Shown here: one piece after another, positions 6,593 to 54,476 of the stretch
Numbering within the stretch: the stretch's first letter is position 1
Layout of the letters: every line of letters starts with the position of its first letter
Sequence record: MN850644.1
Strand: one strand, 5' to 3'
Length of the DNA: 64,000 nucleotides
Origin: Escherichia phage ekra
The notes under the pieces: model-generated
What the model was told of the DNA's origin: nothing
Database searches by the model: none
The model's input: only the letters and a program-made list of their open reading frames with translations
Position numbers and translations under genes: made by a program

Positions 6593-7090
6593 TCAAGCAC
6601 AATTTGCTTTCATTACCTTATGGATTCTTTTTTCAGCATCTTCATAAGTTTCTTTAGTAATAAACTTAATTGCTGCAATATTGGCATTGTAGAAGAGTCT
6701 GAGCTTCGAGTCAATCCTTTTTGTCATTACATCGAATTTATGTTGAAGGTTTGCTTCACCATAGACTAGGCCACCTTTTGTGTAGTAGGTCTGAATAATG
6801 TAAAAGTCAAAAAATTCTTTTCCAAAGCTCTCAATATCTTTTTTAATATACTCAGAAGAAGTCTCGTAAGTCATCCAATCACTCTCCTTAGTGACTACCT
6901 TCTTCCGAGTCTTCCCAGCAACTTTTCTTTTTGTCACACTGTTAAGCTGTTTCTTTCCGATATAATATTGTCCAGTCTTCTTACAGTGCACTAAATAGAC
7001 AAAGCCAAAATGTTTAGTGGGGTCAACTTCCCCACATAAAGATACCCAATGACCGTAGGTAGGGCAATTGCCAAATCCTTTAATCTTCAT
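6593..7090 (-). CDS. GIY-YIG-like endonuclease (putative homing endonuclease)
   Basis: 165-aa ORF with FVYLVHCKKTGQYYIGKK resembling the GIY-(x10)-YIG motif; located among replication genes. Confidence 0.4.
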   Translation of the reverse strand: MKIKGFGNCPTYGHWVSLCGEVDPTKHFGFVYLVHCKKTGQYYIGKKQLNSVTKRKVAGKTRKKVVTKESDWMTYETSSEYIKKDIESFGKEFFDFYIIQTYYTKGGLVYGEANLQHKFDVMTKRIDSKLRLFYNANIAAIKFITKETYEDAEKRIHKVMKANCA

Positions 7091-7587
7091 TCATAAGCTT
7101 CTCCGTGATTTGAAAACTCTTTATGTAGTTCTTCTCTTTTCTTTGTGACTGCATCTTTGGCATCTTCAATACTGTCAAAATACCCCAGAAAGTGAGATAC
7201 TCCGTGTGTCATAACTCTGGCCTTCCATTTTTGGTTAGCCTTATAGAAAGATACACCCTTAACTCCAGATGTGTTGTTGGAGTGTGTTCTTCTATTCCAA
7301 GAGTTTTCAGCTTGTGTGCAAACCCTTAGATTTAATCTCCGATTATCATTAGTAATACCGTTTCGATGGTCTACTCTGTTAGGTAGGAAACCGTCTGTGT
7401 ACAGGATTGCTAAATCATGAGCCATATAGGGTTTTCTTTTAATTTTTATCCTAATATAACCTCGCTTATGTGGTGTACCTGCAATGGAACCTATAACTGT
7501 TCTTTTAGCTGATTTCTTTATCCACGTAAAGACCCCTGTTTCGGGGTCATAGTGTAGATATTCTTTAAGTATCTGCTGAGTCAACAT
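7087..7587 (-). CDS. HNH endonuclease with AP2-like DNA-binding domain (putative homing endonuclease)
   Basis: ORF 7087..7611; HNH-like HRNGITNDNRRLNLRVCTQAENSWN and C-terminal AP2-like GVKGVSFYKANQKWKARV...GYFDSIEDA; N-terminus paralogous to ORF 17193..17702; start set to internal Met to limit overlap with exonuclease gene. Confidence 0.6.
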   Translation of the reverse strand: MLTQQILKEYLHYDPETGVFTWIKKSAKRTVIGSIAGTPHKRGYIRIKIKRKPYMAHDLAILYTDGFLPNRVDHRNGITNDNRRLNLRVCTQAENSWNRRTHSNNTSGVKGVSFYKANQKWKARVMTHGVSHFLGYFDSIEDAKDAVTKKREELHKEFSNHGEAYE

Positions 7588-8611
7588 TTGGAGTCCAACC
7601 ATACTTTTCAAATGAAAAAATATCTGATTTATTTCGCTCTTGATAAGCTAGGAAGAAATGCTGTTCCATTAACTCTAACGGCGTCTTTGTAACGGTCTGT
7701 CCATCCCATGACACATAGGTATAAGAGTCTTTTTTAGCATAAAGTTCATAGATAGCGTCAAGACACTCTTTGTAGGTCTCTTTACCCTCTAAAGCATTCA
7801 TCACAGCTACTTTACCAGCACCTTTTAGGCCGAAGTAGTTGTCTGCATTATCTCCAGCAACAGCCTGATAACACAAGAATTTAAAACCTACACCAACTGT
7901 TTTTGCAGCTTTTGGTTTTGATTTGATAGGGCAATCCCAGATATTACCAACATTATTATCAGCGATAAAAATTAGTGGTGATTTTTCATAAGTCATATCA
8001 ATACAATAAGTCCCTTCAGCTTGTCGAAGGTCTTTGTCAATACTCATAAGAGCAGCTTTCTTACCCATCTTTTCAGCTTTAGCAATTACGATTGAATCGG
8101 CTTCGAAGCCCCCCTTTAAGAGTTTGAACTCTGGTCTTGACAGGAGATACTCACGACAAGCAACTAAGTGTGTTGGTGTGACAGCATCTTTGCGGTTACC
8201 TTGATATTGGTGCTCGAGACCTTTAATGTCTTTATGTTTATGCACACCTTTCTCTGTTAAATAACCTACCCAAGTTCTCTCTTTACCAACAACCTTAAGC
8301 CATTCCTGAAGCACCTGTTGAGTAGCCATGATAGCTTCTTTTTCACTCTTAGCTTCTTTCCAAGTCTGTCTTTCCCATTCATCTTCATCAAATGTCAGGC
8401 CAAGTTCTTCCACAAGGATTCTCTGGTCTGCTAACCATCTTGCAGCATCTTTCGCATTATCAAATGGTTCAGATTCTTCTGCTGTGAGTTTATTGACATA
8501 TTTATATTTTGCTTTCTCAACTACACAAGCACCTTTATAGGCAATACTGTCAGAGTCAATAAAAACATGTGTAACTGAATCGGGAAGTTTTGTTAATGTG
8601 TACTTCTCCAT
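7565..8611 (-). CDS. 5'-3' exonuclease / flap endonuclease (T7 gene 6-like)
   Basis: 348-aa ORF; acidic clusters FIDSDSIAYKG, MSIDKDL, AGDNADNYFG resemble the T7 gp6 / FEN catalytic motifs; sits beside primase-helicase and SSB genes. Confidence 0.65.
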   Translation of the reverse strand: MEKYTLTKLPDSVTHVFIDSDSIAYKGACVVEKAKYKYVNKLTAEESEPFDNAKDAARWLADQRILVEELGLTFDEDEWERQTWKEAKSEKEAIMATQQVLQEWLKVVGKERTWVGYLTEKGVHKHKDIKGLEHQYQGNRKDAVTPTHLVACREYLLSRPEFKLLKGGFEADSIVIAKAEKMGKKAALMSIDKDLRQAEGTYCIDMTYEKSPLIFIADNNVGNIWDCPIKSKPKAAKTVGVGFKFLCYQAVAGDNADNYFGLKGAGKVAVMNALEGKETYKECLDAIYELYAKKDSYTYVSWDGQTVTKTPLELMEQHFFLAYQERNKSDIFSFEKYGWTPNVDSADT

Positions 8612-14440: not shown

Positions 14441-14479
14441 CAGTAATGTATGAGGTTAATGATTTTAGAGGGAGTAAAA

Positions 14480-17179
14480 ATGGAAAACGTAGATTTTAAA
14501 AACTTACATTTAGTTGGTGATACAGAAACTGATGGTTTACTCCTTGAGTTCACTAAAGTGCACGTAATGGCTTTCGCAGACTATAAATCTGACGATGAAG
14601 AGCCACCTGTATGGGTCTTTACAGATGAGCCTATCCTCGGTCACAAGTACACTAAGTACATCAAGGGCGGCTTACGTGAAGGTGTTGAATTTGCGTTAAA
14701 GGCAAAACGTCTTTGCATCCATAATGGTCTCGGCTATGACTGGTGGGTTTTCAATCACATTGCGCCTGATTTATGGAACTTTGATAATCCAAAATGTAAG
14801 CCGTGGAGTAATTTCTTTCAGGATTCTCTTATCCAGTCTCGTGTTCAGTGGATGGATAGGCCAACCCCAAAGGGTTATAAAGGTGCTCATGGTTTGGCTG
14901 CATGGGGTGCTCGTGTTGGTGTCCGTAAACCAGAGATTGAACATTGGGGTGTGTGGAATGCAGAAATCTTCACTCGTGTTGTAGAAGATATCCGTATTAA
15001 CGCCAAAACTAAACGGGCACTTGATAATGAGTATCTCAAGCTTAAGAAGTGTGGCATAGATACTTATGAAACCTATATGCGAGCTAAAGAAACATCTTTC
15101 TGGATGAGTCAACAAGCTATCAATGGTTGGAAAGCTGATAAGGAGCTTATGGAGTTCCATGTAAAGGAACTTGACAAGTTGACTAATGAGCTTGCTTCAG
15201 AGGTTGAACCACATCTTCCTCCAACTATTAAGACCAAAGGTAAAGTGACTGGAGAAGAGTTTGCAAAAGCTTGGAATGAGTATGTTGAAACATTTGGTCA
15301 TGCAGATGGACTGAAGAGGATTACCAAGTACCCTAAGACAAAGTATCGTCAGCAGGTACGTAATGGTGAGATGCAGACATATGAAATCAAGCCATTTGGT
15401 AAGCCAACTACAAAGATTTTTAACATTGAAAAGAGAAATTGCTATACACCAACCAACTCTGTAACTGGTGAAGAGTACAAGGAGGGTTTTGTAGCAATGA
15501 AGGATGCTCGTGAAATTTGCAATGAGTTGAATGCAAAGATTGGTAAGAAATGCAAAGACTGGAAGCCAGTAAAAACAGTCAAAACTGTGAAGTACTATAA
15601 CAGTCACGTTGTTAACCACTTTGAACTTGAGTCAAGTCGCTACACAGGTTTGATTGATGCACCGTATACACCAATTGAGTTTGAAGTTTCTCGTATGACT
15701 CAGGTAGCAGTTGTTAAAGACTACTTGAAATCAGTTGGTTGGATTCCAGATGACTGGAACTACAAGAAAGACTCAGATGGTCGCCCTGTCAAAGTTTGTC
15801 GTTTCAAAGACAATAAAAAGATGATTACAAAACATCCTAAGTGGCAGGAAATGGTTGAGCGGTGTGGTTTGAGCTATGTTGAGCACGAAGGTGTACAGTA
15901 TATTGAGCATAACTGGTCTGTGAAGAAGTACACAGATTTGCTTGAGCCTTGCTTAATCCGTACTTCACCAAAACTTACTGAATCATCTTATGATACGATT
16001 GAAGGTGAGCTTGGACAGAAGATTGCGAAATACTACACTTTGATGCACAGACGCAGAACTATTGAGAACTCAAAGGATGATGAAAAAGGTTGGTTGAACC
16101 AGATTCGTCCTGATGGTCGCCTTAGTGCTGGTGCAATGGTGTTTGGTACTTCAACTGGACGTATGACACAATATGGTATTGTAAACGTACCGTCTGGTGC
16201 TGCTGTCTATGGGGAACCAATGAGGGCAGTGTGGATTTGTGAGGAAGGGACTAACGTTGTCTCTGTAGACATGAACTCAGCCCAGCTAGTTCTTCTTTGT
16301 AACTTTATGGGTGACAAAGACTTCACCAAAGCGGTAACGCAAGGTAAAGAAGAGATTGAGTTCATTCGTCAAGAAGATGGACGCTATTACTGCAAACATT
16401 TTGATGAGTATCTCAACCCAGAAATTGATAAGTACCTTCGCTATGACTCTGAGAATGACCTGTACGTTGTCTATTCAGGGACTGATGCACATACACTGAA
16501 CAGTATTTACTTTAGCTTGAATGATGAGCAGGATATCTTGACTTGTCGAGCTACTCAGGATGAGAATCTTCTTCATGAGATTAGCAAAGGTCGTAAGAAA
16601 GCTAAGAATGGTATCTATGCACTGCTGTTCGGTGCAGGTGATGAGAAGTTTGCTAAGACGATTAAAGCTGCAACTACTCAGGAAGGAGCACTGACTAAAC
16701 AGACTTACTTTATTCGTTTGCCTAAAATTAAGAAGCTGCTAGATGACTTGGAAGCTGACTACAAAGCAACTAAAAAGGCACTTGAAGAGGTGTTTGGTAA
16801 GACTGCTGCAATCTCTAAAGGGGGTTTTGTAAAGGTTGCTGGAGCTTGGTTGTGGTGTAAATCTCCACATAAGTTATTGAATTATTTGCTCATGGGTTCA
16901 GAGGCTCAGATTCAAAATGAGGCGATTAACCTTGCTTGTAGAAGAGCATGTGAAGAAGGGTTGACAAAATTAAATGGACGAAAACCAGCAATTGGTGCTA
17001 GGCTTTTGCTGGCATACCACGATGAAAACAGTTGGGAGTGCCCAGAAAGTATGACTCAAGAAGTTAAAGCCATAACTGACTGGATGTATGGTCAGGCATC
17101 TAAGAATTTAGGTTTGAAGAGTGAGACGCTTGTAACTGGCACAGGTAAGGTTGGTAAGAGCTGGTTGGAAGTGCATTGA
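14480..17179 (+). CDS. DNA polymerase, family A (T7 gp5-like) with 3'-5' exonuclease domain
   Basis: ORF 14450..17179; Exo I motif VGDTETDGL near N-terminus, long palm/fingers region; start moved to ATG 14480 (MENVDFKN) with GAGGGAG RBS. Confidence 0.85.
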   Translation: MENVDFKNLHLVGDTETDGLLLEFTKVHVMAFADYKSDDEEPPVWVFTDEPILGHKYTKYIKGGLREGVEFALKAKRLCIHNGLGYDWWVFNHIAPDLWNFDNPKCKPWSNFFQDSLIQSRVQWMDRPTPKGYKGAHGLAAWGARVGVRKPEIEHWGVWNAEIFTRVVEDIRINAKTKRALDNEYLKLKKCGIDTYETYMRAKETSFWMSQQAINGWKADKELMEFHVKELDKLTNELASEVEPHLPPTIKTKGKVTGEEFAKAWNEYVETFGHADGLKRITKYPKTKYRQQVRNGEMQTYEIKPFGKPTTKIFNIEKRNCYTPTNSVTGEEYKEGFVAMKDAREICNELNAKIGKKCKDWKPVKTVKTVKYYNSHVVNHFELESSRYTGLIDAPYTPIEFEVSRMTQVAVVKDYLKSVGWIPDDWNYKKDSDGRPVKVCRFKDNKKMITKHPKWQEMVERCGLSYVEHEGVQYIEHNWSVKKYTDLLEPCLIRTSPKLTESSYDTIEGELGQKIAKYYTLMHRRRTIENSKDDEKGWLNQIRPDGRLSAGAMVFGTSTGRMTQYGIVNVPSGAAVYGEPMRAVWICEEGTNVVSVDMNSAQLVLLCNFMGDKDFTKAVTQGKEEIEFIRQEDGRYYCKHFDEYLNPEIDKYLRYDSENDLYVVYSGTDAHTLNSIYFSLNDEQDILTCRATQDENLLHEISKGRKKAKNGIYALLFGAGDEKFAKTIKAATTQEGALTKQTYFIRLPKIKKLLDDLEADYKATKKALEEVFGKTAAISKGGFVKVAGAWLWCKSPHKLLNYLLMGSEAQIQNEAINLACRRACEEGLTKLNGRKPAIGARLLLAYHDENSWECPESMTQEVKAITDWMYGQASKNLGLKSETLVTGTGKVGKSWLEVH

Positions 17180-17192
17180 TGGTGTTGAAATG

Positions 17193-17702
17193 ATTACAGA
17201 AATTCGTCTTAAGGAGCTATTGGACTACGACCCCGAAACAGGGGTCTTTACTTGGAAGTTTAGAGAAGGTAATGCAAACTTTAACTCTAGATTTGGAGGT
17301 AAGAGGGCTGGAAACTACAGAACAAATACTGATGGACACAAGTCAGTTCAGTTGCTGATTGATGGAAGGGGTTACCAAGCAAATCGTTTAGTTATCTTGT
17401 ATATGGATGGATATCTACCTGATAAAACCTTACAGGTTGACCATAAGAATGGGGACGGTTGGGACAATAGGTACTTGAATTTAAGGGTTTGTACAGCTTC
17501 ACAAAACTCTTGCAATCGGTCAAGAGAGTCCCCATCTGGGTTGCCAAAAGGTGTACAGAAGATAAGTAAAAGGTTTCGAGCAATGATACGTTTACAAGGT
17601 AAAAACTATCATCTTGGTATGTTTGACACACCAGAAGAAGCCCATAAAGCTTACTGTGAAGCTGCTATTAAACTCCACGGAGAGTTTGCAAAACTATCTT
17701 GA
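17193..17702 (+). CDS. HNH endonuclease with AP2-like domain (putative homing endonuclease), paralog of 7087..7587
   Basis: ORF 17151..17702; LKELLDYDPETGVFTWKFR N-terminus parallels LKEYLHYDPETGVFTWIKK of the other copy; HNH-like VDHKNGDGWDNRYLNLRVCTASQN; AP2-like C-terminus. Confidence 0.6.
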   Translation: MTEIRLKELLDYDPETGVFTWKFREGNANFNSRFGGKRAGNYRTNTDGHKSVQLLIDGRGYQANRLVILYMDGYLPDKTLQVDHKNGDGWDNRYLNLRVCTASQNSCNRSRESPSGLPKGVQKISKRFRAMIRLQGKNYHLGMFDTPEEAHKAYCEAAIKLHGEFAKLS

Positions 17703-17753
17703 CAAGGTGCTCAGGGAAGAGTACCTTATACAATATCTTGTATAGGAGGACTT

Positions 17754-17963: not shown

Positions 17964-18172
17964 CACTTGCAGACGTTATCCAACAACTTCATGATAACTG
18001 CTATACTCCAGAGTTGATTCAGGAGATGCTTATTGTAGTGATGCCTAGTAAGTTCGTAAAAGGTTTTAATAATGACTCTTTAAGGTCTGCGCATATCCTT
18101 ATTGTTGATGGTAAGATTGCAAGGGACCGTACTGGAGTCCTTAAGGGCGAACGTATTAATATTAACCTCTGA
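17945..18172 (+). CDS. hypothetical small protein
   Basis: 75-aa ORF. Confidence 0.3.
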   Translation: METSKMTLADVIQQLHDNCYTPELIQEMLIVVMPSKFVKGFNNDSLRSAHILIVDGKIARDRTGVLKGERININL

Positions 18173-18190
18173 ATATTGGAGATACCGAAA

Positions 18191-18346
18191 ATGAAACGCA
18201 AAGTTAAGTTTTTTAATTTATATGGAAGAGTTGGTAAAGGTTTTGACTGGCAACTGTTACGCTCAAATGTTAAAAGCAATGAATTAGCACCACTTATCAT
18301 TCATTATCGACGTACATACAGAGAAGTAGAGCATCGTGAACAGTAA
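18191..18346 (+). CDS. hypothetical small basic protein (51 aa, below ORF-track cutoff)
   Basis: Hand-read ATG at 18191 preceded by GGAGATA RBS; MKRKVKFFNLYGRVGKGFDWQLLRSN... Confidence 0.25.
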   Translation: MKRKVKFFNLYGRVGKGFDWQLLRSNVKSNELAPLIIHYRRTYREVEHREQ

Positions 18347-18359
18347 ACAGGGGTGTATT

Positions 18360-20655: not shown

Positions 20656-21261
<606 letters not shown>

Positions 21262-21263
21262 TT

Positions 21264-21704
21264 ATGAATACGAAAGCATTAGCAGCAAAGTTTAGTTACG
21301 GTGACACTGTATCACATTCTGAGATGGACACCTTCTTAGGTATTGTGAAGCCAACTTATCAAGGTGACATTGTTAAGTACGAAGATGAAATGAAGGCTTA
21401 TGCGCTTACACGTCTAAACCGACTTGAGAAGTTTATTGAGAAGCTTCTTAAAGAAGAGAAGATTTATCTGGTTGCTTCAATGGGTGTTGGTTATCGTGTG
21501 GTTGAACCTAAGCATCAAGCAACTATTGCAAAACGAAAAATGTCTGGTAAAATTGGTCGTGCTTTAAAGCAAGCCACTCAAGCGATTGAGAATGTGAACA
21601 CTATGGCACTTAGCCATCAAGAACGCTCACGACTAATTGAACAGCAAAACCATTTAGCTGCTATGAAAGCTAACATTAACAAGCAACGTAGAAAACCTTT
21701 CTAA
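21264..21704 (+). CDS. hypothetical protein flanked by repeat clusters
   Basis: 146-aa ORF, basic C-terminus (NKQRRKPF). Confidence 0.45.
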   Translation: MNTKALAAKFSYGDTVSHSEMDTFLGIVKPTYQGDIVKYEDEMKAYALTRLNRLEKFIEKLLKEEKIYLVASMGVGYRVVEPKHQATIAKRKMSGKIGRALKQATQAIENVNTMALSHQERSRLIEQQNHLAAMKANINKQRRKPF

Positions 21705-49635: not shown

Positions 49636-49711
49636 TGGAGAATCCGAAGGGACTCGAACCCTTATAAACCTGTTTTGCAGACAGGTACATATCCATTTCT
49701 GTCACGGATTC
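49636..49711 (-). tRNA. tRNA-Cys (anticodon GCA)
   Basis: Hand-folded cloverleaf on minus strand; T-arm GACTCGAACCC-type; anticodon stem CCTGT/ACAGG, loop CTGCAAA; CCA encoded; ends +/-3 nt. Confidence 0.65.
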
Positions 49712-49715
49712 AAAT

Positions 49716-49808
49716 TGGAGGAAGATACCAGACTTGAACTGGTACACCGATTTCTCAGCTACTGGCAGTTTAGCAAACTGCTCCCTTACCTTTTAGGGTT
49801 AATCTTCC
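49716..49808 (-). tRNA. tRNA-Ser (anticodon GCT), long variable arm
   Basis: 93-nt element, acceptor GGAAGAT/ATCTTCC, anticodon loop TTGCTAA; hand-folded. Confidence 0.6.
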
Positions 49809-49809
49809 A

Positions 49810-50544
49810 TTATTTCTGTAATGCGCTCTTCATTTCTGGTGTTGCAATAGTGTCAATTACACCAGTTTTACAAGCATCGTCAAACCAGTCTGGTAAGATA
49901 CCTGCTAAGAACCCATTGATATTCGTTTTAAGGTACTCTGCAATAAGGGCAGCTTCTTCTTCAATCATCTGCACAACTTCATCTGCATAGGCGGTAATCT
50001 TTGAGATACCCTCATTAATCTTAATAACAGCTTGGTTAGCTAAATCAGAAACAGTATCAAGACCCTTATCAATAGCATCTTGTAAGTCACTTAACACATC
50101 GTTAACACTATCTAGTGTACTGTTAATCGTATCAATAGCTTTTTGACCATACTCTGTAGCAACACCCATAATACCACTGAATGGTGTACAACCGACTTGT
50201 TCTCCTGCTGCACCCATAACATTGGAGTATCCCTTTGCTACCTGCATACGTGATGAAAACTCATCAATAGACTTTTGACCATAGTCTGTTAGGGTCTTAG
50301 TAGTTGCTGTAGTGCTTGTCAGGCTTGTTGTAAAGCTGTTTAGAAGGACTGTTGTAAGTCCAGCAGCAACAAGCTTCTCCTCCATTGTAGGGTCTGTTAC
50401 AGAGCTAATAGAGCTTACAAGTGATGTAGAGGCAGCTACGGTTCCACCGAGAACTGCTGCACCAGTAATAAGTGGGTTAGAAAACCCTTTACCAGTTTTT
50501 AAGAGATTAAAAATCTCCTTACCTTGTTCTGTCATCTCTTTCAT
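49810..50544 (-). CDS. hypothetical protein embedded in tRNA array
   Basis: ORF 49810..50607 trimmed to ATG 50544 (MKEMTEQGKE, AAAGG RBS) so as not to overlap tRNA-Phe; Ser/Thr/Gly-rich N-terminal half, acidic helical C-terminal half. Confidence 0.4.
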   Translation of the reverse strand: MKEMTEQGKEIFNLLKTGKGFSNPLITGAAVLGGTVAASTSLVSSISSVTDPTMEEKLVAAGLTTVLLNSFTTSLTSTTATTKTLTDYGQKSIDEFSSRMQVAKGYSNVMGAAGEQVGCTPFSGIMGVATEYGQKAIDTINSTLDSVNDVLSDLQDAIDKGLDTVSDLANQAVIKINEGISKITAYADEVVQMIEEEAALIAEYLKTNINGFLAGILPDWFDDACKTGVIDTIATPEMKSALQK

Positions 50545-50560
50545 TAAGCACCTTTGAAAT

Positions 50561-50636
50561 TGGTAGTCCAGTGGGATTTGAACCCTCTTCTCATGTTTTT
50601 CAGACACGCGCTTTAACCATATAAGCTACTTGGACT
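50561..50636 (-). tRNA. tRNA-Phe (anticodon GAA)
   Basis: T-arm GGGATTTGAACCC; anticodon loop CTGAAAA; hand-folded. Confidence 0.6.
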
Positions 50637-50642
50637 ATAAAT

Positions 50643-50718
50643 TGGGGTGACCTACGGGATTTGAACCCGTATAGACCATGTTCACAGCATGGGTCATTAC
50701 CGTTTATGATAAGGCCAC
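50643..50718 (-). tRNA. tRNA-His (anticodon GTG)
   Basis: T-arm ACGGG-ATTTGAA-CCCGT; anticodon stem CATG/CATG, loop CTGTGAA; C73 discriminator. Confidence 0.6.
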
Positions 50719-50749
50719 ATTTAAGGACTCTCGTAAGAATCCTTAGAAG

Positions 50750-50825
50750 TGGCAGCGGCATAAGGATTTGAACCTTAATAGGACAGCTTCAGAGACTGCT
50801 GCATTGCCAGTTATGCTATACCGCT
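50750..50825 (-). tRNA. tRNA-Gln (anticodon CTG), tentative anticodon
   Basis: T-arm TAAGG-ATTTGAA-CCTTA clear; anticodon loop CTCTGAA with weak stem. Confidence 0.45.
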
Positions 50826-50830
50826 AAATT

Positions 50831-50909
50831 TGGTACTCCATATCGGATTCGAACCGATACATAACACAGATTTTAAGTCTGGCCTCTCTGCCAATTGGAG
50901 TAATGGAGC
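50831..50909 (-). tRNA. tRNA with Leu anticodon TAA; short variable region (unusual for Leu)
   Basis: T-arm ATCGG-ATTCGAA-CCGAT; loop CTTAAAA; D-loop AATTGGCAGAG (Leu-like); A73; only ~6 nt between anticodon and T stems. Confidence 0.45.
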
Positions 50910-50911
50910 AT

Positions 50912-50987
50912 TGGCGGGGGATGTTGGAATTGAACCAACTTCTTCGATTTCAAAGACCGAGGTTTTAACCTTGTAAACTAATCCCCT
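50912..50987 (-). tRNA. tRNA-Gln (anticodon TTG)
   Basis: T-arm GTTGG-AATTGAA-CCAAC; anticodon loop CTTTGAA; D-arm GTTT/AAAC. Confidence 0.5.
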
Positions 50988-50995
50988 TTAAATCT

Positions 50996-51553
50996 TTACT
51001 TTCTCAGTGGATGAATAAAGAATGCCAACATAACTCTTTCCCTTGAGAATGCTCTTTCTTCTGGGACAACACTTTTTAGTTTCCATCCAACATAAATTCT
51101 CCAGTAAAACTGTTTACCAAAGACTTTAATTGACGGAATAAAAGCGAATAATCCCCAAGCATTACTGTTCCACATTAGGAGATAACCTGTCTGATTATCT
51201 TCAGGGTCAGAACTTACGTTGATATTACCTTTCCACTTAGTAACATCTTTTACATCTCTTCCTAATACATGGTAAGAGAAGTTATAAGCTTTGTTTCTCC
51301 AGAGCCATCCGACTCTCTGCATGTAGACACCCAGCTTACCAATCTTTCTAATCTTAGCCCATCTTTTAACGTGACCTTCATCACCATCAATCGGATTGTC
51401 ATAGGTCTCCATCCATCTGAATCCAAAAGGTAGATGTCCTTTCTTCTCACTGTAGAATGGAACTACGAAAGGTGCTAAGATGACTGCTAGGGTTGCTGCA
51501 AATGGTTCTAGTAAAGCTAGGAAAATCCATGAAGCATACTTCAAATATCTCAT
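50996..51553 (-). CDS. hypothetical membrane protein embedded in tRNA array
   Basis: 185-aa ORF with AAGAGG RBS; N-terminal hydrophobic helix ASWIFLALLEPFAATLAVILAPFVVPF; Trp-rich. Confidence 0.45.
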   Translation of the reverse strand: MRYLKYASWIFLALLEPFAATLAVILAPFVVPFYSEKKGHLPFGFRWMETYDNPIDGDEGHVKRWAKIRKIGKLGVYMQRVGWLWRNKAYNFSYHVLGRDVKDVTKWKGNINVSSDPEDNQTGYLLMWNSNAWGLFAFIPSIKVFGKQFYWRIYVGWKLKSVVPEERAFSRERVMLAFFIHPLRK

Positions 51554-51572
51554 CTAAATAGCCTCTTAAAAT

Positions 51573-51650
51573 TGGTGTTCCAAGACGGATTCGAACCGTC
51601 ACTAATACAAGGTTTGAGCTTGCATCCTCTGCCAATTGGGATACTGGAAC
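51573..51650 (-). tRNA. tRNA with Leu anticodon CAA; short variable region
   Basis: T-arm GACGG-ATTCGAA-CCGTC; loop CTCAAAC; D-loop CCAATTGGCAGAGGA-type as in 50831..50909; A73. Confidence 0.45.
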
Positions 51651-51651
51651 A

Positions 51652-51726
51652 TGGTACTCACTAAAGGACTTGAACCTTTTTCTTCATCTTGTAAGGGTGA
51701 TGTTTTACCATATAAACTAAGCGAGT
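51652..51726 (-). tRNA. tRNA-Val (anticodon TAC)
   Basis: T-arm AAAGG-ACTTGAA-CCTTT; anticodon stem TCATC/GGTGA, loop CTTACAA. Confidence 0.6.
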
Positions 51727-51821
51727 GTGAAAGAGGTCTGAAGTTGTGCCGCTAACTCAACTCCGTGGAATTTGTTACGGTCTTCAGTTGACACCAGCGG
51801 TCTTTCACTTGACCTCTGAAT

Positions 51822-51898
51822 TGGTGCTGCTCACAGGACTCGAACCTGCATTTCCATCCTTACAAGGGATGTGTAATAGCCAATTATACGAAAGCAGC
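51822..51898 (-). tRNA. tRNA-Thr (anticodon TGT)
   Basis: Anticodon stem CATCC/GGATG perfect, loop CTTGTAA; T-arm ACTCGAA type. Confidence 0.6.
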
Positions 51899-51904
51899 AT
51901 TGTT

Positions 51905-51979
51905 TGGAGCATCCAGAGGGAATCGAACCCTCAACCTCAGTTTGGAAGACTGTAATTTTCCCGTTTAAACTATGGATGC
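51905..51979 (-). tRNA. tRNA-Gly (anticodon TCC)
   Basis: Acceptor GCATCCA/TGGATGC perfect; T-arm GAGGG-AATCGAA-CCCTC; loop CTTCCAA. Confidence 0.65.
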
Positions 51980-51985
51980 ACTAAT

Positions 51986-52062
51986 TGGTGGAGAAGCAGG
52001 GAATTGAACCCTGTACTTAAGTTTGCAAAACTTATGTTTTAACCATGTAAACTACATCCCCA
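51986..52062 (-). tRNA. tRNA-Ala (anticodon TGC)
   Basis: Anticodon stem TAAGT/ACTTA perfect, loop TTTGCAA; acceptor contains G3-U70 pair characteristic of tRNA-Ala. Confidence 0.6.
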
Positions 52063-52067
52063 ATGTT

Positions 52068-52143
52068 TGGTACAGGTGGAGGGAATTGAACCCATCGTCT
52101 TACTGATTAAGAGTCAGTCGCATAACCATTTTGCTACACCTGC
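52068..52143 (-). tRNA. tRNA-Lys (anticodon CTT)
   Basis: Anticodon stem ACTGA/TCAGT perfect, loop CTCTTAA; T-loop AATTGAA. Confidence 0.55.
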
Positions 52144-52150
52144 ATTAATT

Positions 52151-52228
52151 TGGTAGGAGACAAGGGATTCGAACCCTCAAACACCAACTTCTAAGGATGG
52201 TAGGTTTACCAATTACCGTCAATCTCCC
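52151..52228 (-). tRNA. tRNA with Leu anticodon TAG; short variable region
   Basis: T-arm AAGGG-ATTCGAA-CCCTC; loop CTTAGAA; D-loop AATTGGTAA (Leu-like); A73. Confidence 0.45.
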
Positions 52229-52483
52229 ATTAAATCTTTTTAGAGAACTTCTAAGAACCTAAGCAACAAGGTTCCACAACAAGCTGTAATAACCTTAGAA
52301 GCCCTCTAAAAAGACCTAAAAAGGTCTTTGCATAGTCTTGTTTAATCCGGTGACTAGAACCTTTGGAGAGCTTGATATTATCTCTTCTCCATGACACCTA
52401 CTAGGTGTTTTATCAGTGTGTACGACAATACACGAGGGATACCAAAGCAACATCCGAATGAAGCTTGGCTTTAAATCTTATTA

Positions 52484-52573
52484 GGCGGTAAGTAAAGGAG
52501 TCGAACCCTCACCGTATCTCTACAGTGGCAACTGTTTTCAAGACAGTTTGGCTACCATTAGCCGCTACCTACC
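52484..52573 (-). tRNA. tRNA-Ser (anticodon TGA), long variable arm
   Basis: Anticodon stem ACTGT/ACAGT perfect, loop CTTGAAA; ~21-nt variable arm; 3-bp D stem; 3' CCA not encoded. Confidence 0.55.
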
Positions 52574-52586
52574 CCTAATAAGACTT

Positions 52587-52669
52587 TGGCATGGGACGGA
52601 GGAGTTGAACCCCTTTGAAACGGTTTTGGAGGCCGTTGCTCATGCCTTAGAGTCTTAACATCGTCCCAC
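52587..52669 (-). tRNA. tRNA-Trp (anticodon CCA), boundaries uncertain
   Basis: Anticodon stem ACGGT/GCCGT, loop CTCCAAA; T-loop AGTTGAA; element ~7 nt longer than canonical, D region ambiguous. Confidence 0.4.
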
Positions 52670-52811
52670 ACTATAATTCGAAGCTTACCGTATTTTCGCA
52701 ACACTGTAAAGCCCCTTCTCAGATTATTTACATGTTCTGGAAAACATGAGATACAGACCACCTCCTTACACGGAGACCCGATAAGGTCGTCTAAGCAATC
52801 TGCTAACTATT

Positions 52812-52888
52812 TGGCACACCCTACAGGATTCGAACCTGTAACTAACGATTTAGAAGACCGTTGCTCTATCCAATTGAACTAAGGGTGC
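52812..52888 (-). tRNA. tRNA-Arg (anticodon TCT)
   Basis: T-arm ACAGG-ATTCGAA-CCTGT; loop CTTCTAA. Confidence 0.6.
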
Positions 52889-53135
52889 ATTAATCTTTAA
52901 AGACTCTCTTAGAAAGCCCTTAAAGATGCCCACCTTATTAATCATACCGTGGGCGAGTACGCCAAATTCTTTGATGAGGGATTGGAAGACCTCACTGGTG
53001 TTTAGCCTATCAAGCTACTGCCAGAAAAACATTGTCGTTTGCATTTATTTTAAATTTGCAAAATAGACGCTACGCAACGAAAACTAAGGTTACTATAAAG
53101 TGGTCACATGTTAATGTCAACAACTTTATTGAAAT

Positions 53136-53211
53136 TGGTACTGGTAGGTGGAATCGAACCACCGATGTTCCCTTATCAGGGGAGTGTTATAACCTTCTTA
53201 ACTATACCAGC
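53136..53211 (-). tRNA. tRNA-Ile (anticodon GAT)
   Basis: T-arm GGTGG-AATCGAA-CCACC perfect; anticodon loop CTGATAA. Confidence 0.6.
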
Positions 53212-53213
53212 TT

Positions 53214-53290
53214 GGAGGTTCAGATGGGAATCGAACCCACATTCATAGGGCTTATGAGACCCCTGCATTACCTTATCTGCGACTGAACCA
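53214..53290 (-). tRNA. tRNA-Met (anticodon CAT; initiator, elongator or Ile-lysidine type not resolved)
   Basis: Acceptor GGTTCAG/CTGAACC perfect; anticodon loop CTCATAA with three consecutive G-C pairs in anticodon stem. Confidence 0.55.
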
Positions 53291-53293
53291 TAT

Positions 53294-53369
53294 TGGTAGA
53301 AGTGGAGGGATTCGAACCCATCGCCTGTCAGATTAAAAGTCTGCCGCATCACCATTCTGCTACACTTCC
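53294..53369 (-). tRNA. tRNA-Lys (anticodon TTT)
   Basis: T-arm GGAGGGATTCGAACCC; anticodon loop CTTTTAA. Confidence 0.6.
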
Positions 53370-53827
53370 ATTAAATTATCTTTGTAGATAAGCTACCCAG
53401 ACTTGCTTAAGGTCTGTAGCGATGTGCTTTGTTGGGTTTAAATCTAGAATTTACCCTTTCACCCTTTGTGGTCGCATACTCACAGGTAAGCTTAATAACT
53501 TATCTACAAAGATAATTACCAGACCGTTGTTTATCATCTTAAGTGCTACCATTACACCAACTCGACATCTGCCGAGTGAAGGAATCGAACCTTCGCCTTT
53601 TCTTTACCGGAGAAATAGATTGTTTAAGTTTTGCTGTAAACGGTCTTCTGTAAATTTGTTGAGCCAGACCAAGTTTTAAATTTTTTCAAAATTAAATTGG
53701 CTTGAAAATATCATACGTACTTGCTGAATTTGGTCTTCTGCTCCTTTAAAGAATACTCGTAAGAACTCTTTAAGGGAGGGGCTAAATAGCCCTCTCAAAA
53801 CATCATCTTGAAATACTTATTATAATT

Positions 53828-53905
53828 TGGCGGTTACGAAGGGATTTGAACCCTCATCATCTCCCGTGACAGGGGAGTATTTTAACCAGATTAAACTACA
53901 TAACC
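53828..53905 (-). tRNA. tRNA-Asp (anticodon GTC)
   Basis: Anticodon stem CTCCC/GGGAG perfect, loop CTGTCAC; T-arm AAGGG-ATTTGAA-CCCTC. Confidence 0.65.
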
Positions 53906-53911
53906 TTTATT

Positions 53912-53999
53912 TGGTGTGCCGTGTAGGAGTCGAACCTACCGAGTCTCAATGACAAGGGATTTACAGTCCCCACCGCTACCATCTACGGGATAACGACAC
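53912..53999 (-). tRNA. tRNA-Tyr (anticodon GTA), long variable arm
   Basis: 88-nt element; T-arm GTAGG-AGTCGAA-CCTAC; loop CTGTAAA; ~15-nt variable arm. Confidence 0.55.
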
Positions 54000-54070
54000 A
54001 TTTTATTATTCTATTCAGGCTAAGGACTTGCACCTTACAAATCGGTGAGCAATCGCTTCTCTCCTAAATT

Positions 54071-54147
54071 TGGCGGTTAGTCAGGGATTCGAACCCTGTG
54101 CCATTCGCTTAACAGGCGACCGCACATACCTTATGTGCTTCCTAACC
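54071..54147 (-). tRNA. tRNA-Asn (anticodon GTT)
   Basis: T-arm CAGGG-ATTCGAA-CCCTG; anticodon loop CTGTTAA; D stem GCAC/GTGC. Confidence 0.6.
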
Positions 54148-54225
54148 TTAATACATTGCCAGACCGTGTTTTTTTCTTTTATCCGCAAAAAGTAGTTTGT
54201 TGCTGCATACGGTCTTCTGCAAAAT

Positions 54226-54302
54226 TGGAGGCGGGTGCAGGAGTCGAACCTACCGATACCATGCTAATGAGACATGTGAGACGCCCTTTCTCTATACCCG
54301 CA
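54226..54302 (-). tRNA. tRNA-Met, second CAT-anticodon gene
   Basis: T-loop AGTCGAA; anticodon stem CATG/CATG, loop CTCATTA. Confidence 0.5.
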
Positions 54303-54391
54303 ATTCTTAATGACCAGACCAAATATCTTCTTTGTCCGATTTATCTTCAGATGAATAAGATTAAGTTTGCTGCAATTGGTCTTCTGTCAAA

Positions 54392-54469
54392 ACTGGCGTT
54401 CCAGAAGGGATTTGAACCCTCAAATATCCACTTTGAAAGAGTGGTGACTTTACCGTTTTGTCTACTGGA
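54392..54469 (-). tRNA. tRNA-Glu (anticodon TTC)
   Basis: Acceptor GTTCCAG/CTGGAAC perfect; anticodon stem CCACT/AGTGG perfect, loop CTTTCAA. Confidence 0.65.
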
Positions 54470-54476
54470 ACATTAA

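Follow-up and report, generated by a model that had tools for sequence, protein, structure and literature searches.

The stretch of DNA analysed here (the window: 64,000 nucleotides of Escherichia phage ekra, sequence record MN850644.1) is that of a Felixounavirus genome, a Felix O1-like coliphage with 97-99% identity to phages heid, bumzen and NRG857CP1. Three ORFs with homing-endonuclease-like domains had been predicted next to its replication genes (Table 1). All three are real and their domain assignments stand: two encode HNH_3 + AP2 proteins, here called HNH1 and HNH2, and one encodes a SegE-type GIY-YIG protein, here called GIY. They had been described as a cluster; the three genes are present, but they are spread over two loci 10 kb apart. 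BLASTP searches with the GIY, HNH1 and HNH2 proteins found no further homing-endonuclease-like ORF in the window, and a non-exhaustive PHROG scan of ten ORFs of medium size, two of them within the tRNA cluster, gave no extra endonuclease. Therefore, the supposed cluster consists of only three genes at two loci.

HNH1 and HNH2 are ordinary free-standing homing endonucleases, which come and go among relatives, and they are not new, being already annotated in near-identical GenBank genomes; the window HNH1 is 100% identical to a gene of phage garuso. Six endonuclease-like sequences have been reported in Felix O1 (PMC8300805) and HNH-AP2 enzymes have been reported for Felix 01 (PMC4237383). Magnani et al. 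2004, as cited in PMC4237383, dealt with the HNH-AP2 endonucleases of bacteriophage Felix 01, RB49, Trichodesmium, and Tetrahymena.

Genes and junctions at the two loci

At the first locus, the exonuclease gene (exo), which lies upstream of HNH1, is labelled exodeoxyribonuclease or gene 6 in records of Felix O1 and its relatives, and its product also has weak NCBIfam matches to 5'-3' exonuclease. An overlap with exo had been claimed for both GIY and HNH1. It exists for HNH1, the first 23 nt of which lie within exo, and does not exist for GIY in the window genome; instead, the stop of HNH1 overlaps the start of GIY by 4 nt (ATGA). In-frame alternative starts of HNH1 are found at 7602 (ATG) and 7611 (TTG). 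The chain of overlapping stops and starts from exo to HNH1 to GIY is maintained with HNH1 placed between the exo stop and the GIY start, and in phages with an empty site GIY follows exo directly with an 11-nt overlap.

At the second locus, HNH2 was expected to begin at 17193 and to overlap the 3' end of the DNA polymerase gene (pol). Its end at 17702 is correct; however, the ATG is at 17190, with 17193 being the next codon (ATT), and this ATG lies 11 nt past the pol stop (17177-17179). Only a start at the upstream TTG, at 17151, would make HNH2 overlap pol. The gene ends in a TGA that falls within the TTGACA hexamer of a promoter-like element; the AYO145A record labels this element a promoter, and a consensus scan of the window made no call there. 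In junction alignments, both HNH genes appear as exact insertions at gene junctions (exo/GIY and pol/promoter), outside introns and inteins.

Table 1. Coordinates of the features at the two loci in the window
Feature	Position	Strand	Basis
GIY, GIY-YIG catalytic-domain-only protein, 165 aa, Ounavirinae core gene	6593..7090	-	Pfam, distribution
HNH1, HNH_3 + AP2 gene of free-standing homing endonuclease type, promoter-less cassette	7087..7587	-	domains, sequence, distribution
Hairpin GACCCC-GAAACA-GGGGTC inside HNH1, encoding DPETGV	7531..7548	-	exact copy in HNH2
Divergent exo 3' end travelling with the HNH1 cassette	7571..7653	-	window vs Barry mismatch profile
5'-3' exonuclease gene (T7/T3 gene 6-like), host gene of HNH1	7565..8611	-	PHROG 107, E 2e-62
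Family A DNA polymerase gene, uninterrupted, upstream of HNH2	14450..17179	+	ORF; annotation in relatives
Empty insertion site of the group I intron found in pol of relatives	16620..16622	+	within conserved KNGIYA/LLFGAG motif
Divergent pol 3' end linked to the window-type HNH2 allele	16900..17179	+	window vs heid mismatches
HNH2, HNH_3 + AP2 gene of free-standing homing endonuclease type	17190..17702	+	between pol stop and next promoter-like element
Second copy of the hairpin, inside HNH2	17229..17246	+	fits terminator-like pattern, consensus scan
Conserved TTGACA promoter-like element of the downstream gene	17699..17732	+	alignment of occupied and empty sites

The window itself contains no detectable group I intron. 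In pol of Mushroom, the insert is 311 nt long, lacks an ORF, and scores 62.3 bits against Rfam Intron_gpI (gathering score 50); the insert in Barry is 806 nt long and carries an Endonuclease_7 ORF. Collaborative or trans homing of HNH2 with this intron, which would lie about 560 nt upstream, was considered and rejected for want of any association: only some of the records with the window-type HNH2 have the pol intron (as judged from span lengths), and Barry and similar intron-bearing phages have no HNH2.

Alleles, empty sites and divergent flanks

HNH1 and HNH2 match Pfam HNH_3 and AP2 as well as PHROG 99 'HNH endonuclease' (E 4e-71 and 7e-61). The HNH_3 matches (E 1.8e-7 and 6.1e-12) are both above the cut-off, and the AP2 matches (17.6 and 26.6 bits) are under the cut-off of 33.3 bits, whereas the AP2 domains of sister alleles at the same site score 38.1 and 41.3 bits. 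The two proteins are paralogous, as was predicted, with 39% identity (E 1e-33) and the common N-terminal segment LKExLxYDPETGVFTW. The HNH_3 + AP2 architecture is present in every allele examined at both loci, among them the alleles of Felix O1, which differ from those of the window at both loci (53% and 42% amino-acid identity).

A profile search with the alleles matched I-HmuI (PDB code: 1U3E; E 3.5e-9), with DH...N...N aligned, and also plant AP2/ERF domains. Six alleles agree at residues D73, H74, N82, N86, N95, and N98, and the ORF is intact in all eight translated alleles. Loss of the catalytic residues would have spoken against the prediction; they are kept in every allele examined. The catalytic core is thus shared with I-HmuI of Bacillus phage SPO1. 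However, I-HmuI is intron-encoded and has a NUMOD/HTH DNA-binding region, whereas the window enzymes are free-standing and have AP2. I-HmuI nicks one strand of its target.

The presence/absence polymorphism that was predicted among relatives holds for both HNH-AP2 genes. Occupancy was counted in an evenly spaced sample of records, with classifiable records only: at locus 1, 33 of 52 were empty, 6 had the window-type allele, and 13 had another allele; at locus 2, about 32 of 51 were occupied and about 19 empty. HNH1 is absent from Barry and AYO145A, for instance, and occupied and empty versions of locus 1 differ by an exact 491-bp indel. The empty exo/GIY junction was found in 167 records overall, in each of which the empty-site type of exo tail abuts the GIY start. 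AYO145A, Barry, and JH2 have no HNH gene at locus 2, and vB_SflM_004 has a deletion scar there. At least three HNH-AP2 alleles compete for each site, locus 2 included, and the window alleles of HNH1 and of HNH2 are each full-length in only 27 of about 258-261 records.

Two apparent cases of decay were rejected. A class of locus 2 with about 210 extra nucleotides had been a candidate for HNH remnants; in JH2, the one record of the class that was checked, the other nine of that span class being assumed alike, the surplus is accounted for by an unrelated gene of 72 aa that lies downstream of the promoter, and nothing occupies the HNH site. The HNH gene of Moogle seemed to be a truncated pseudogene, annotated with 339 nt, yet the full ORF of 166 codons is intact.

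The sequences next to the HNH genes diverge together with the alleles. At locus 1, the window and Barry (empty site) differ by 1 mismatch over 8611-7654 and by 33 mismatches over 7653-7571 (83 nt); outside these last 83 nt of exo, identity is about 100% on either side of the locus. At locus 2, the window and heid differ by 13 mismatches in 14459..16899 (99.5% identity over 2.4 kb) and by 72 mismatches in 16900..17173 (26% divergence over 274 nt), followed by different HNH alleles and then by 96-100% identity from 17650 onwards. Mushroom shares both the HNH2 allele and the pol tail with the window, and the locus 1 allele of Felix O1 and Mushroom lies within about 1.2 kb of divergent sequence.

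The identity breaks at 7653 and 16900 are sharp, in genomes that are otherwise 99.5-100% identical. They match co-conversion, although they do not prove that an endonuclease made the start, and to judge from these alignments the allele-linked divergent flanks are consistent with intronless homing. The segment 7571..7653 is a candidate co-converted flank, and a candidate site of both the endonuclease target and the immunity polymorphisms. Since the HNH1-linked exo tail is closer to that of the outgroup phiEa21-4 than the empty-site tail is, the empty sites of locus 1 may be derived, resistant alleles and not naive targets.

The case for intronless homing

In T4, free-standing endonucleases, intronless homing, co-conversion, and promoter-less cassettes have all been described (PMC2988022). 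Close parallels to HNH1 and HNH2 are MobA-E of T4-like phages, which passages in PMC2988022 and PMC2790892 present as promoter-less, intergenic genes beside essential nucleotide or replication genes (e.g. MobE between nrdA and nrdB), sporadic in distribution, with a target expected in the neighbouring gene and with co-converted flanks. Unlike in the Mob proteins, the DNA-binding module of HNH1 and HNH2 is AP2, the host genes are those of a T7 gp6-like exonuclease and a family A polymerase, and the activity is a predicted one. Swapping of endonucleases at a site, as seen here, has a parallel in T4-related phages, where SegH and Hef replace mobC and mobE (Sandegren et al. 2005, in the account given by PMC2988022); however, the competitors here are all of the HNH-AP2 family, with site-specific 3' ends and an 18-nt hairpin in common.

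Overall, it is highly probable that HNH1 and HNH2 are free-standing homing endonuclease genes of the HNH_3 (I-HmuI-like) + AP2 type, and that GIY is not mobile and probably domesticated. A possible homing scheme can be described as follows. In a mixed infection, the HNH enzyme would bind DNA through its AP2 domain and would nick or cut the genome that lacks the allele, inside the 3' end of the essential upstream gene. Recombinational repair would copy the endonuclease gene, with the adjoining 80-280 nt of the donor exo or pol, into the cut genome, and sequence differences in the co-copied stretch would protect the donor. Rival alleles would compete for both sites, and HNH genes would sometimes be lost through deletion. 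Because each HNH cassette is promoter-less and placed exactly at a gene junction, the operon keeps working. No demonstrated cleavage, target site, or homing event was found in the literature for any Felixounavirus HNH-AP2 protein.

Allele-linked flanks could also result from homologous recombination between co-infecting phages without an endonuclease break. In addition, HNH1 is under strong purifying selection across a long divergence (dN/dS 0.06 between the window and Moogle alleles, i.e. across Felixounavirus and Mooglevirus, at dS 1.5), a pattern also compatible with a gene that benefits the phage. The HNH-AP2 genes might therefore no longer be selfish but be kept for the benefit of the phage, by excluding co-infecting relatives or by driving local recombination or amplification, with their patchiness due to ordinary recombination and loss. 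Every allele is intact and the placement of the cassettes preserves operon expression, as would be expected of useful genes, and among T-even phages endonucleases are credited with marker exclusion (PMC2988022) and with SegB-driven amplification (PMC13096335). This explanation is rather unlikely, however, as about 65% of relatives have no such gene at locus 1 and about 37% have none at locus 2, near-identical genomes differ solely by the cassette, and the deletion scar in vB_SflM_004 marks the gene as dispensable. Moreover, any such benefit would use the same cutting and repair mechanism, and therefore it is an extension of homing and not an exclusive alternative to it.

For phylogenetic work, the 3' ends of exo and pol and both junctions are recombination hot spots that should be excluded from trees of Felixounavirus. 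The defined empty and occupied alleles are ready substrates for tests of HNH-AP2 enzymes.

The GIY-YIG gene and the shared hairpin

The value of the present analysis is mostly corrective: two of the three genes are textbook homing endonucleases, and the third, GIY, is widely mislabelled though it behaves as a core gene. In sequence records it often appears as 'NAD synthetase' or 'GIY-YIG homing endonuclease'. The protein is a full-length match to Pfam SegE_GIY-YIG (E 9e-28; 97.4 bits, cut-off 25). Residues G29, F30, Y32, Y43, G45, E112, and N135 do not vary, and R62 is conserved to at least 90%; they were mapped onto the catalytic residues of I-TevI by motif position, for which structural support is weak. 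The SegE_GIY-YIG domain is shared with T4 SegE and other Seg-type proteins, and long relatives of GIY carry NUMOD3 or HTH as Seg proteins do (nine of the ten scanned among those of 220-390 aa). Unlike these, GIY is a catalytic domain alone: no NUMOD, HTH, or zinc finger module was found in it, and the 27 residues past the catalytic domain hold no other Pfam domain. Sequence searches of the PDB with the GIY protein and profile gave no match, nor did NCBIfam and PADLOC searches with the protein. Its AlphaFold model is of moderate quality (pLDDT 70, with residues 107-147 below 50), and therefore the fold search was weakly informative.

GIY had been predicted to be mobile like its neighbours. It is instead found, with its position unchanged, in essentially all relatives, which had been named beforehand as an outcome that would speak against mobility. 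It matches 297 records (269 at 80% coverage or more), compared with 298 that match the polymerase end, and its position is identical in Felixounavirus, Mooglevirus, Suspvirus, and Kolesnikvirus; in the Kolesnikvirus phages of Erwinia, such as phiEa21-4, it directly follows exo. The dN/dS ratio of GIY is 0.04-0.08, as low as or below those of the exo and MazG genes, and its dN to phiEa21-4 is below that of either. The most plausible reading of GIY is that it descends from a Seg-type enzyme, of which it keeps the catalytic domain alone, that it became fixed directly after exo throughout Ounavirinae, and that it now most likely serves as a domesticated nuclease in phage DNA metabolism.

It could be argued that GIY is a genuine homing endonuclease, fixed in Ounavirinae and still targeting more distant phages that lack it. 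Such a role would agree with its SegE-type GIY-YIG family membership, the retained catalytic residues, the annotation 'GIY-YIG homing endonuclease' in several records, and the fact that about half of the family representatives are just as short. It is nevertheless improbable, given that the 297 records from several genera display no presence/absence polymorphism, that no NUMOD, HTH, or zinc-finger module is present, and that constraint on GIY equals or exceeds that on neighbouring core genes, when a fixed endonuclease without remaining targets should decay. That GIY, HNH1, and HNH2 are inactive remnants or DNA-binding regulators and not nucleases, as the role of plant AP2 as a transcription-factor domain and the sub-threshold AP2 scores of the window proteins (17.6 and 26.6 vs 33.3 bits) might suggest, is highly improbable in view of the invariant HNH (DH...N...N) and GIY-YIG residues, the purifying selection along the full gene length, and the other alleles at the same loci that clear the AP2 cut-off.

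If GIY is a domesticated nuclease, one possibility is that it serves as an endonuclease partner of exo in host-DNA breakdown or recombination. T4 endonuclease II (DenA) is a GIY-YIG enzyme, a small phage nuclease with a housekeeping role in host-DNA breakdown, and the T7 gene 6 exonuclease works with the gene 3 endonuclease. GIY, translationally coupled to a gp6-like exonuclease, may be likened to DenA and T7 gp3 in function and position only; no sequence-level link of GIY to either was found.

HNH1 and HNH2 share an 18-nt hairpin (Table 1), for which the chance expectation is 0.02 per window and the folding energy is -12.6 kcal/mol (z -3.8). A linked pair of proposals can be made, tentatively: that GIY is a domesticated, essential nuclease translationally coupled to exo, and that the hairpin, GACCCC-N6-GGGGTC, is a functional nucleic-acid element. 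If true, the former would show a homing endonuclease domain recruited as a housekeeping nuclease, and the latter would be a conserved nucleic-acid element within a family of competing endonuclease alleles. The hairpin could act as an expression brake on the endonuclease or as a recombination anchor for swapping allele cores as cassettes.

The hairpin is not a general feature of HNH-AP2 genes, as none of about 66 DPETG homologues outside Ounavirinae has six Watson-Crick pairs. Its identity as a canonical intrinsic terminator is doubtful, since only the copy in HNH2 passes a pattern scan; the U-tract that follows it varies among alleles (UUUACG, UUAACA, and UUCUAC). In all Felixounavirus and Mooglevirus HNH-AP2 alleles examined, the hairpin is conserved at the codon level, and in those of Felixounavirus its conservation is perfect.

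Gene neighbourhood and identity of the three ORFs

By sequence comparison the window can be assigned to a genome segment of Felixounavirus (Ounavirinae), since its closest matches, at about 99% identity, are Escherichia phages heid and bumzen and Felixounavirus NRG857CP1, with Salmonella phage Felix O1 at about 94%. The region is matched by 258-262 phage records. Two of the sequences found, GU169904.1 and MG065664.1, are labelled 'Staphylococcus phage SA1' and 'Campylobacter phage A132' and have Felixounavirus sequence inside, and protein P0007, labelled Methanobrevibacter gottschalkii, is 92% identical to the GIY-YIG ORF; all three labels probably reflect contamination or mislabelling.

The three ORFs lie in a replication and nucleotide-metabolism module (Table). 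Its minus strand carries nrdA, MazG, a small ORF, the GIY-YIG ORF, the first HNH-AP2 gene (HNH1), the exonuclease gene and the primase-helicase; the divergent plus strand carries the DNA polymerase, the second HNH-AP2 gene (HNH2), small ORFs and the ligase.

Table. Coordinates of genes, sites and elements in the window
Feature	Position	Strand	Assignment or remark
GIY-YIG ORF	6593..7090	-	Pfam SegE_GIY-YIG, E 9e-28
HNH1	7087..7587	-	Pfam HNH_3 + AP2; PHROGs family 99 'HNH endonuclease'
Shared 3' end of HNH1-site alleles	7087-7160	-	...KKREELHxEFxNHGEAxE
Hairpin in HNH1	7531-7548	-	6-bp stem, folding energy -12.6 kcal/mol
Exonuclease	7565..8611	-	PHROGs family 107 'exonuclease'
DNA polymerase	14450..17179	+	
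Intron site of relatives	16620-16622	+	KNGIYA|LLFGAG motif
HNH2	17190 (ATG)..17702	+	Pfam HNH_3 + AP2; PHROGs family 99 'HNH endonuclease'
Hairpin in HNH2	17229-17246	+	6-bp stem, folding energy -12.6 kcal/mol
Shared 3' end of HNH2-site alleles	17608-17702	+	...EEAHKAYCEAAIKLHGEFAKLS
Variable patch	18150-18350	+	3' of HNH2
tRNA cluster	49639-54555	-	23 genes (Rfam)
ORFs inside or beside tRNA cluster	49810-50607, 50996-51553		conserved PHROGs, function unassigned, not endonucleases

The original prediction described all three ORFs as a cluster of homing-endonuclease-like genes. The ORFs and their domain types are real, with SegE_GIY-YIG found once and HNH_3 plus AP2 twice and PHROGs in agreement, and HNH1 and HNH2 are indeed paralogs (39% identical, E 1e-33), both with LKExLxYDPETGVFTW. 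The gene boundaries needed revision. HNH1 overlaps the exonuclease gene, as proposed, and does so by 23 nt; the GIY-YIG ORF, said to do the same, overlaps the HNH1 stop instead (ATGA). The start of HNH2 had been placed at 17193, three bases from the actual ATG, which lies 11 nt past the polymerase stop; therefore, the proposed overlap with the polymerase gene exists only if TTG 17151 is the start.

In its original form the endonuclease finding is already known. Near-identical GenBank genomes carry the labels 'HNH homing endonuclease' and 'GIY-YIG homing endonuclease', and HNH1 is 100% identical to a gene of phage garuso. Six endonuclease-like sequences are described in Felix O1 (PMC8300805), and HNH-AP2 endonucleases of 'Bacteriophage Felix 01' appear in the literature on AP2 origin (PMC4237383).

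Occupied and empty sites of the HNH-AP2 genes

In T4, free-standing endonucleases are encoded by promoter-less cassettes that sit where conserved genes meet; the enzymes cut in the adjacent gene, the flanks are co-converted in repair ('intronless homing'), and different endonucleases can substitute for each other at one site (PMC2988022). The anatomy of HNH1 and HNH2 is alike, and their interpretation as ordinary free-standing homing endonucleases is well supported. The homing prediction holds for the two HNH genes, though not for the GIY-YIG gene. HNH1 and HNH2 would cut or nick alleles without them in the 3' ends of the exonuclease and polymerase genes, respectively, and would be copied in along with these ends.

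At the exonuclease/GIY junction, 60 evenly spaced records out of 255 matching ones were surveyed and classified by how long a stretch matched. Among the 52 classifiable records, 33 are empty, with exactly 491 bp missing, 6 carry window-type HNH1 (the 80%-identical Mooglevirus form counted in), and 13 have another gene of equal size. Only 27 records have the window-type allele at full length, and 167 have the empty junction together with a distinct version of the exonuclease tail; in all 60 of the latter that were sampled, the features there are 'exonuclease | GIY' and no others. Barry and AYO145A have the empty site, with an 11-nt overlap (ATGAATGAAGATTAA) between the exonuclease stop and the GIY start. 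Both flanks are essentially identical between the window and Barry: there is 1 mismatch from 8611 to 7654, then 33 in the last 83 nt of the exonuclease gene (7653..7571), followed by the 491-bp insertion; the first 40 nt of the GIY-YIG ORF then show two or three differences. The Felix O1/Mushroom allele shows 53% amino-acid identity and a larger divergent tract, about 6950-8150. Since the HNH1-linked exonuclease tail (…FSFEKYGW…) is nearer than the empty-site tail (…FSFKKYNW…) to that of the outgroup phiEa21-4, the empty allele may itself be derived and perhaps resistant.

The HNH2 insertion separates the polymerase stop from a conserved TTGACA element, annotated as a promoter in the AYO145A record; the hexamer contains the HNH2 stop TGA. 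At least three alleles of the HNH_3+AP2 type are found here (window/Mushroom, heid, Felix O1), their common sequence being limited to a hairpin block and the last ~95 nt. Between the window and heid, the polymerase genes differ by 13 mismatches in 2.4 kb and then by 72 in the last 274 nt; different HNH genes follow, and 96-100% identity returns from 17650 onward. Mushroom equals the window in HNH2 allele and polymerase tail alike. Among 51 classifiable records of an evenly spaced sample, ~32 are occupied (6 by the window type) and ~19 are empty. Ten 'empty' records have ~210 extra bases, which in JH2, the one member read and taken to represent the class, are an unrelated small gene past the promoter. 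In Shigella phage vB_SflM_004 (L089, about 480-500), a polymerase tail of the window type and 16 nt from the start of the HNH2 leader, with the ATG, are joined straight to the downstream promoter spacer, the HNH2 ORF and the TTGACA hexamer being gone. Judged from its sequence, this junction is a deletion scar; therefore, HNH2 can be lost.

The ORFs are intact in all eight HNH alleles translated, including that of Moogle, annotated shorter in its record. D73, H74, N82, N86, N95 and N98 are invariant, and the allele profile aligns with the catalytic core of I-HmuI (1U3E, E 3.5e-9) and with plant AP2/ERF domains. HNH1 of the window and Moogle gives a dN/dS of 0.06 (dS 1.5); HNH2 of the window and Mushroom differs by 8 non-synonymous and 4 synonymous changes, too few to inform on selection. 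Since alleles at each site have near-identical, site-specific 3' ends with cores of only 40-60% DNA identity, cores may be swapped between alleles like cassettes, or conversion tracts may stop at the 3' ends.

Further variable features were noted in these genomes. The patch 3' of HNH2 shows 40-70% identity and small indels against AYO145A, Mushroom and Felix O1, and is still 100% identical in heid. In relatives, the polymerase gene is interrupted by a group I intron at a conserved motif: that of Mushroom (L005 21256-21560) is 311 nt, ORF-less, and scores 62 bits against Rfam Intron_gpI, and that of Barry (L002 about 20845-21650) is 806 nt with an Endonuclease_7-type ORF annotated 'DNA polymerase I'. 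The window allele is intron-less. Around the site, exon sequence shows local divergence. Outside the window's coverage, two endonuclease genes split nrdD into pieces in Mushroom (L005 2023-5474), and a MobE-like HNH gene follows nrdD in Barry (L002 2750-3307).

A fixed GIY-YIG gene for a putative nuclease

The GIY-YIG ORF is found at the same position in relatives, which is the opposite of the patchy distribution originally expected of it. It matches 297 records, 269 at 80% of its length or more, and the polymerase end matches 298. The position is the same in Mooglevirus and Suspvirus phages, and in Erwinia phage phiEa21-4 (Kolesnikvirus) the ORF comes immediately after the exonuclease gene, which it overlaps by 8 nt. 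Its dN/dS is 0.04-0.08, and at 0.33 its dN to phiEa21-4 is below the values for the exonuclease (0.43) and MazG (0.65). G29, F30, Y32, Y43, G45, E112 and N135 are invariant, and R62 nearly so. The family comprises 2266 cluster representatives (E ≤ 0.001); scanned members of 220-390 aa have NUMOD3 or HTH modules, which the 165-aa protein lacks. In our reading, a Seg-type catalytic domain would have turned into a fixed, functional phage nuclease, and its position makes it plausible that it acts with the exonuclease in recombination or in breaking down host DNA. This possible domestication is a modest side lead.

The ORF belongs to PHROG 447, labelled 'NAD synthetase', a name that has spread to many GenBank records and for which no sequence support was found; other records name it 'GIY-YIG homing endonuclease' and, once, 'HNH homing endonuclease'. 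It is best described as a mislabelled core gene with a predicted nuclease role.

A hairpin conserved within the HNH-AP2 genes

An exact 18-mer, GACCCCGAAACAGGGGTC, is present in both HNH1 and HNH2, with 0.02 copies expected by chance. In the Felixounavirus and Mooglevirus sequences retrieved, all HNH-AP2 genes at the two sites (those of the window and of relatives L001, L003, L005, L006 and L008-L012) have the form GACCCC-N6-GGGGTC, which is absent from the remainder of these sequences. It encodes DPxxGV, and allele differences are confined to the loop (GACAAA in Felix O1, GAAATA in Mushroom). Among alleles less than 60% identical, compared as non-independent pairs, the codon is shared at 45% of identical amino acids outside the motif, against 142 of 142 within it. 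None of ~66 homologues from other viral contigs with the same DPETG peptide keeps all six Watson-Crick pairs. A canonical terminator is unlikely, because the sequence after the stem varies between alleles. The hairpin is a modest side lead; it may restrain expression of the endonuclease, anchor recombination when allele cores are exchanged, or result from short-patch gene conversion.
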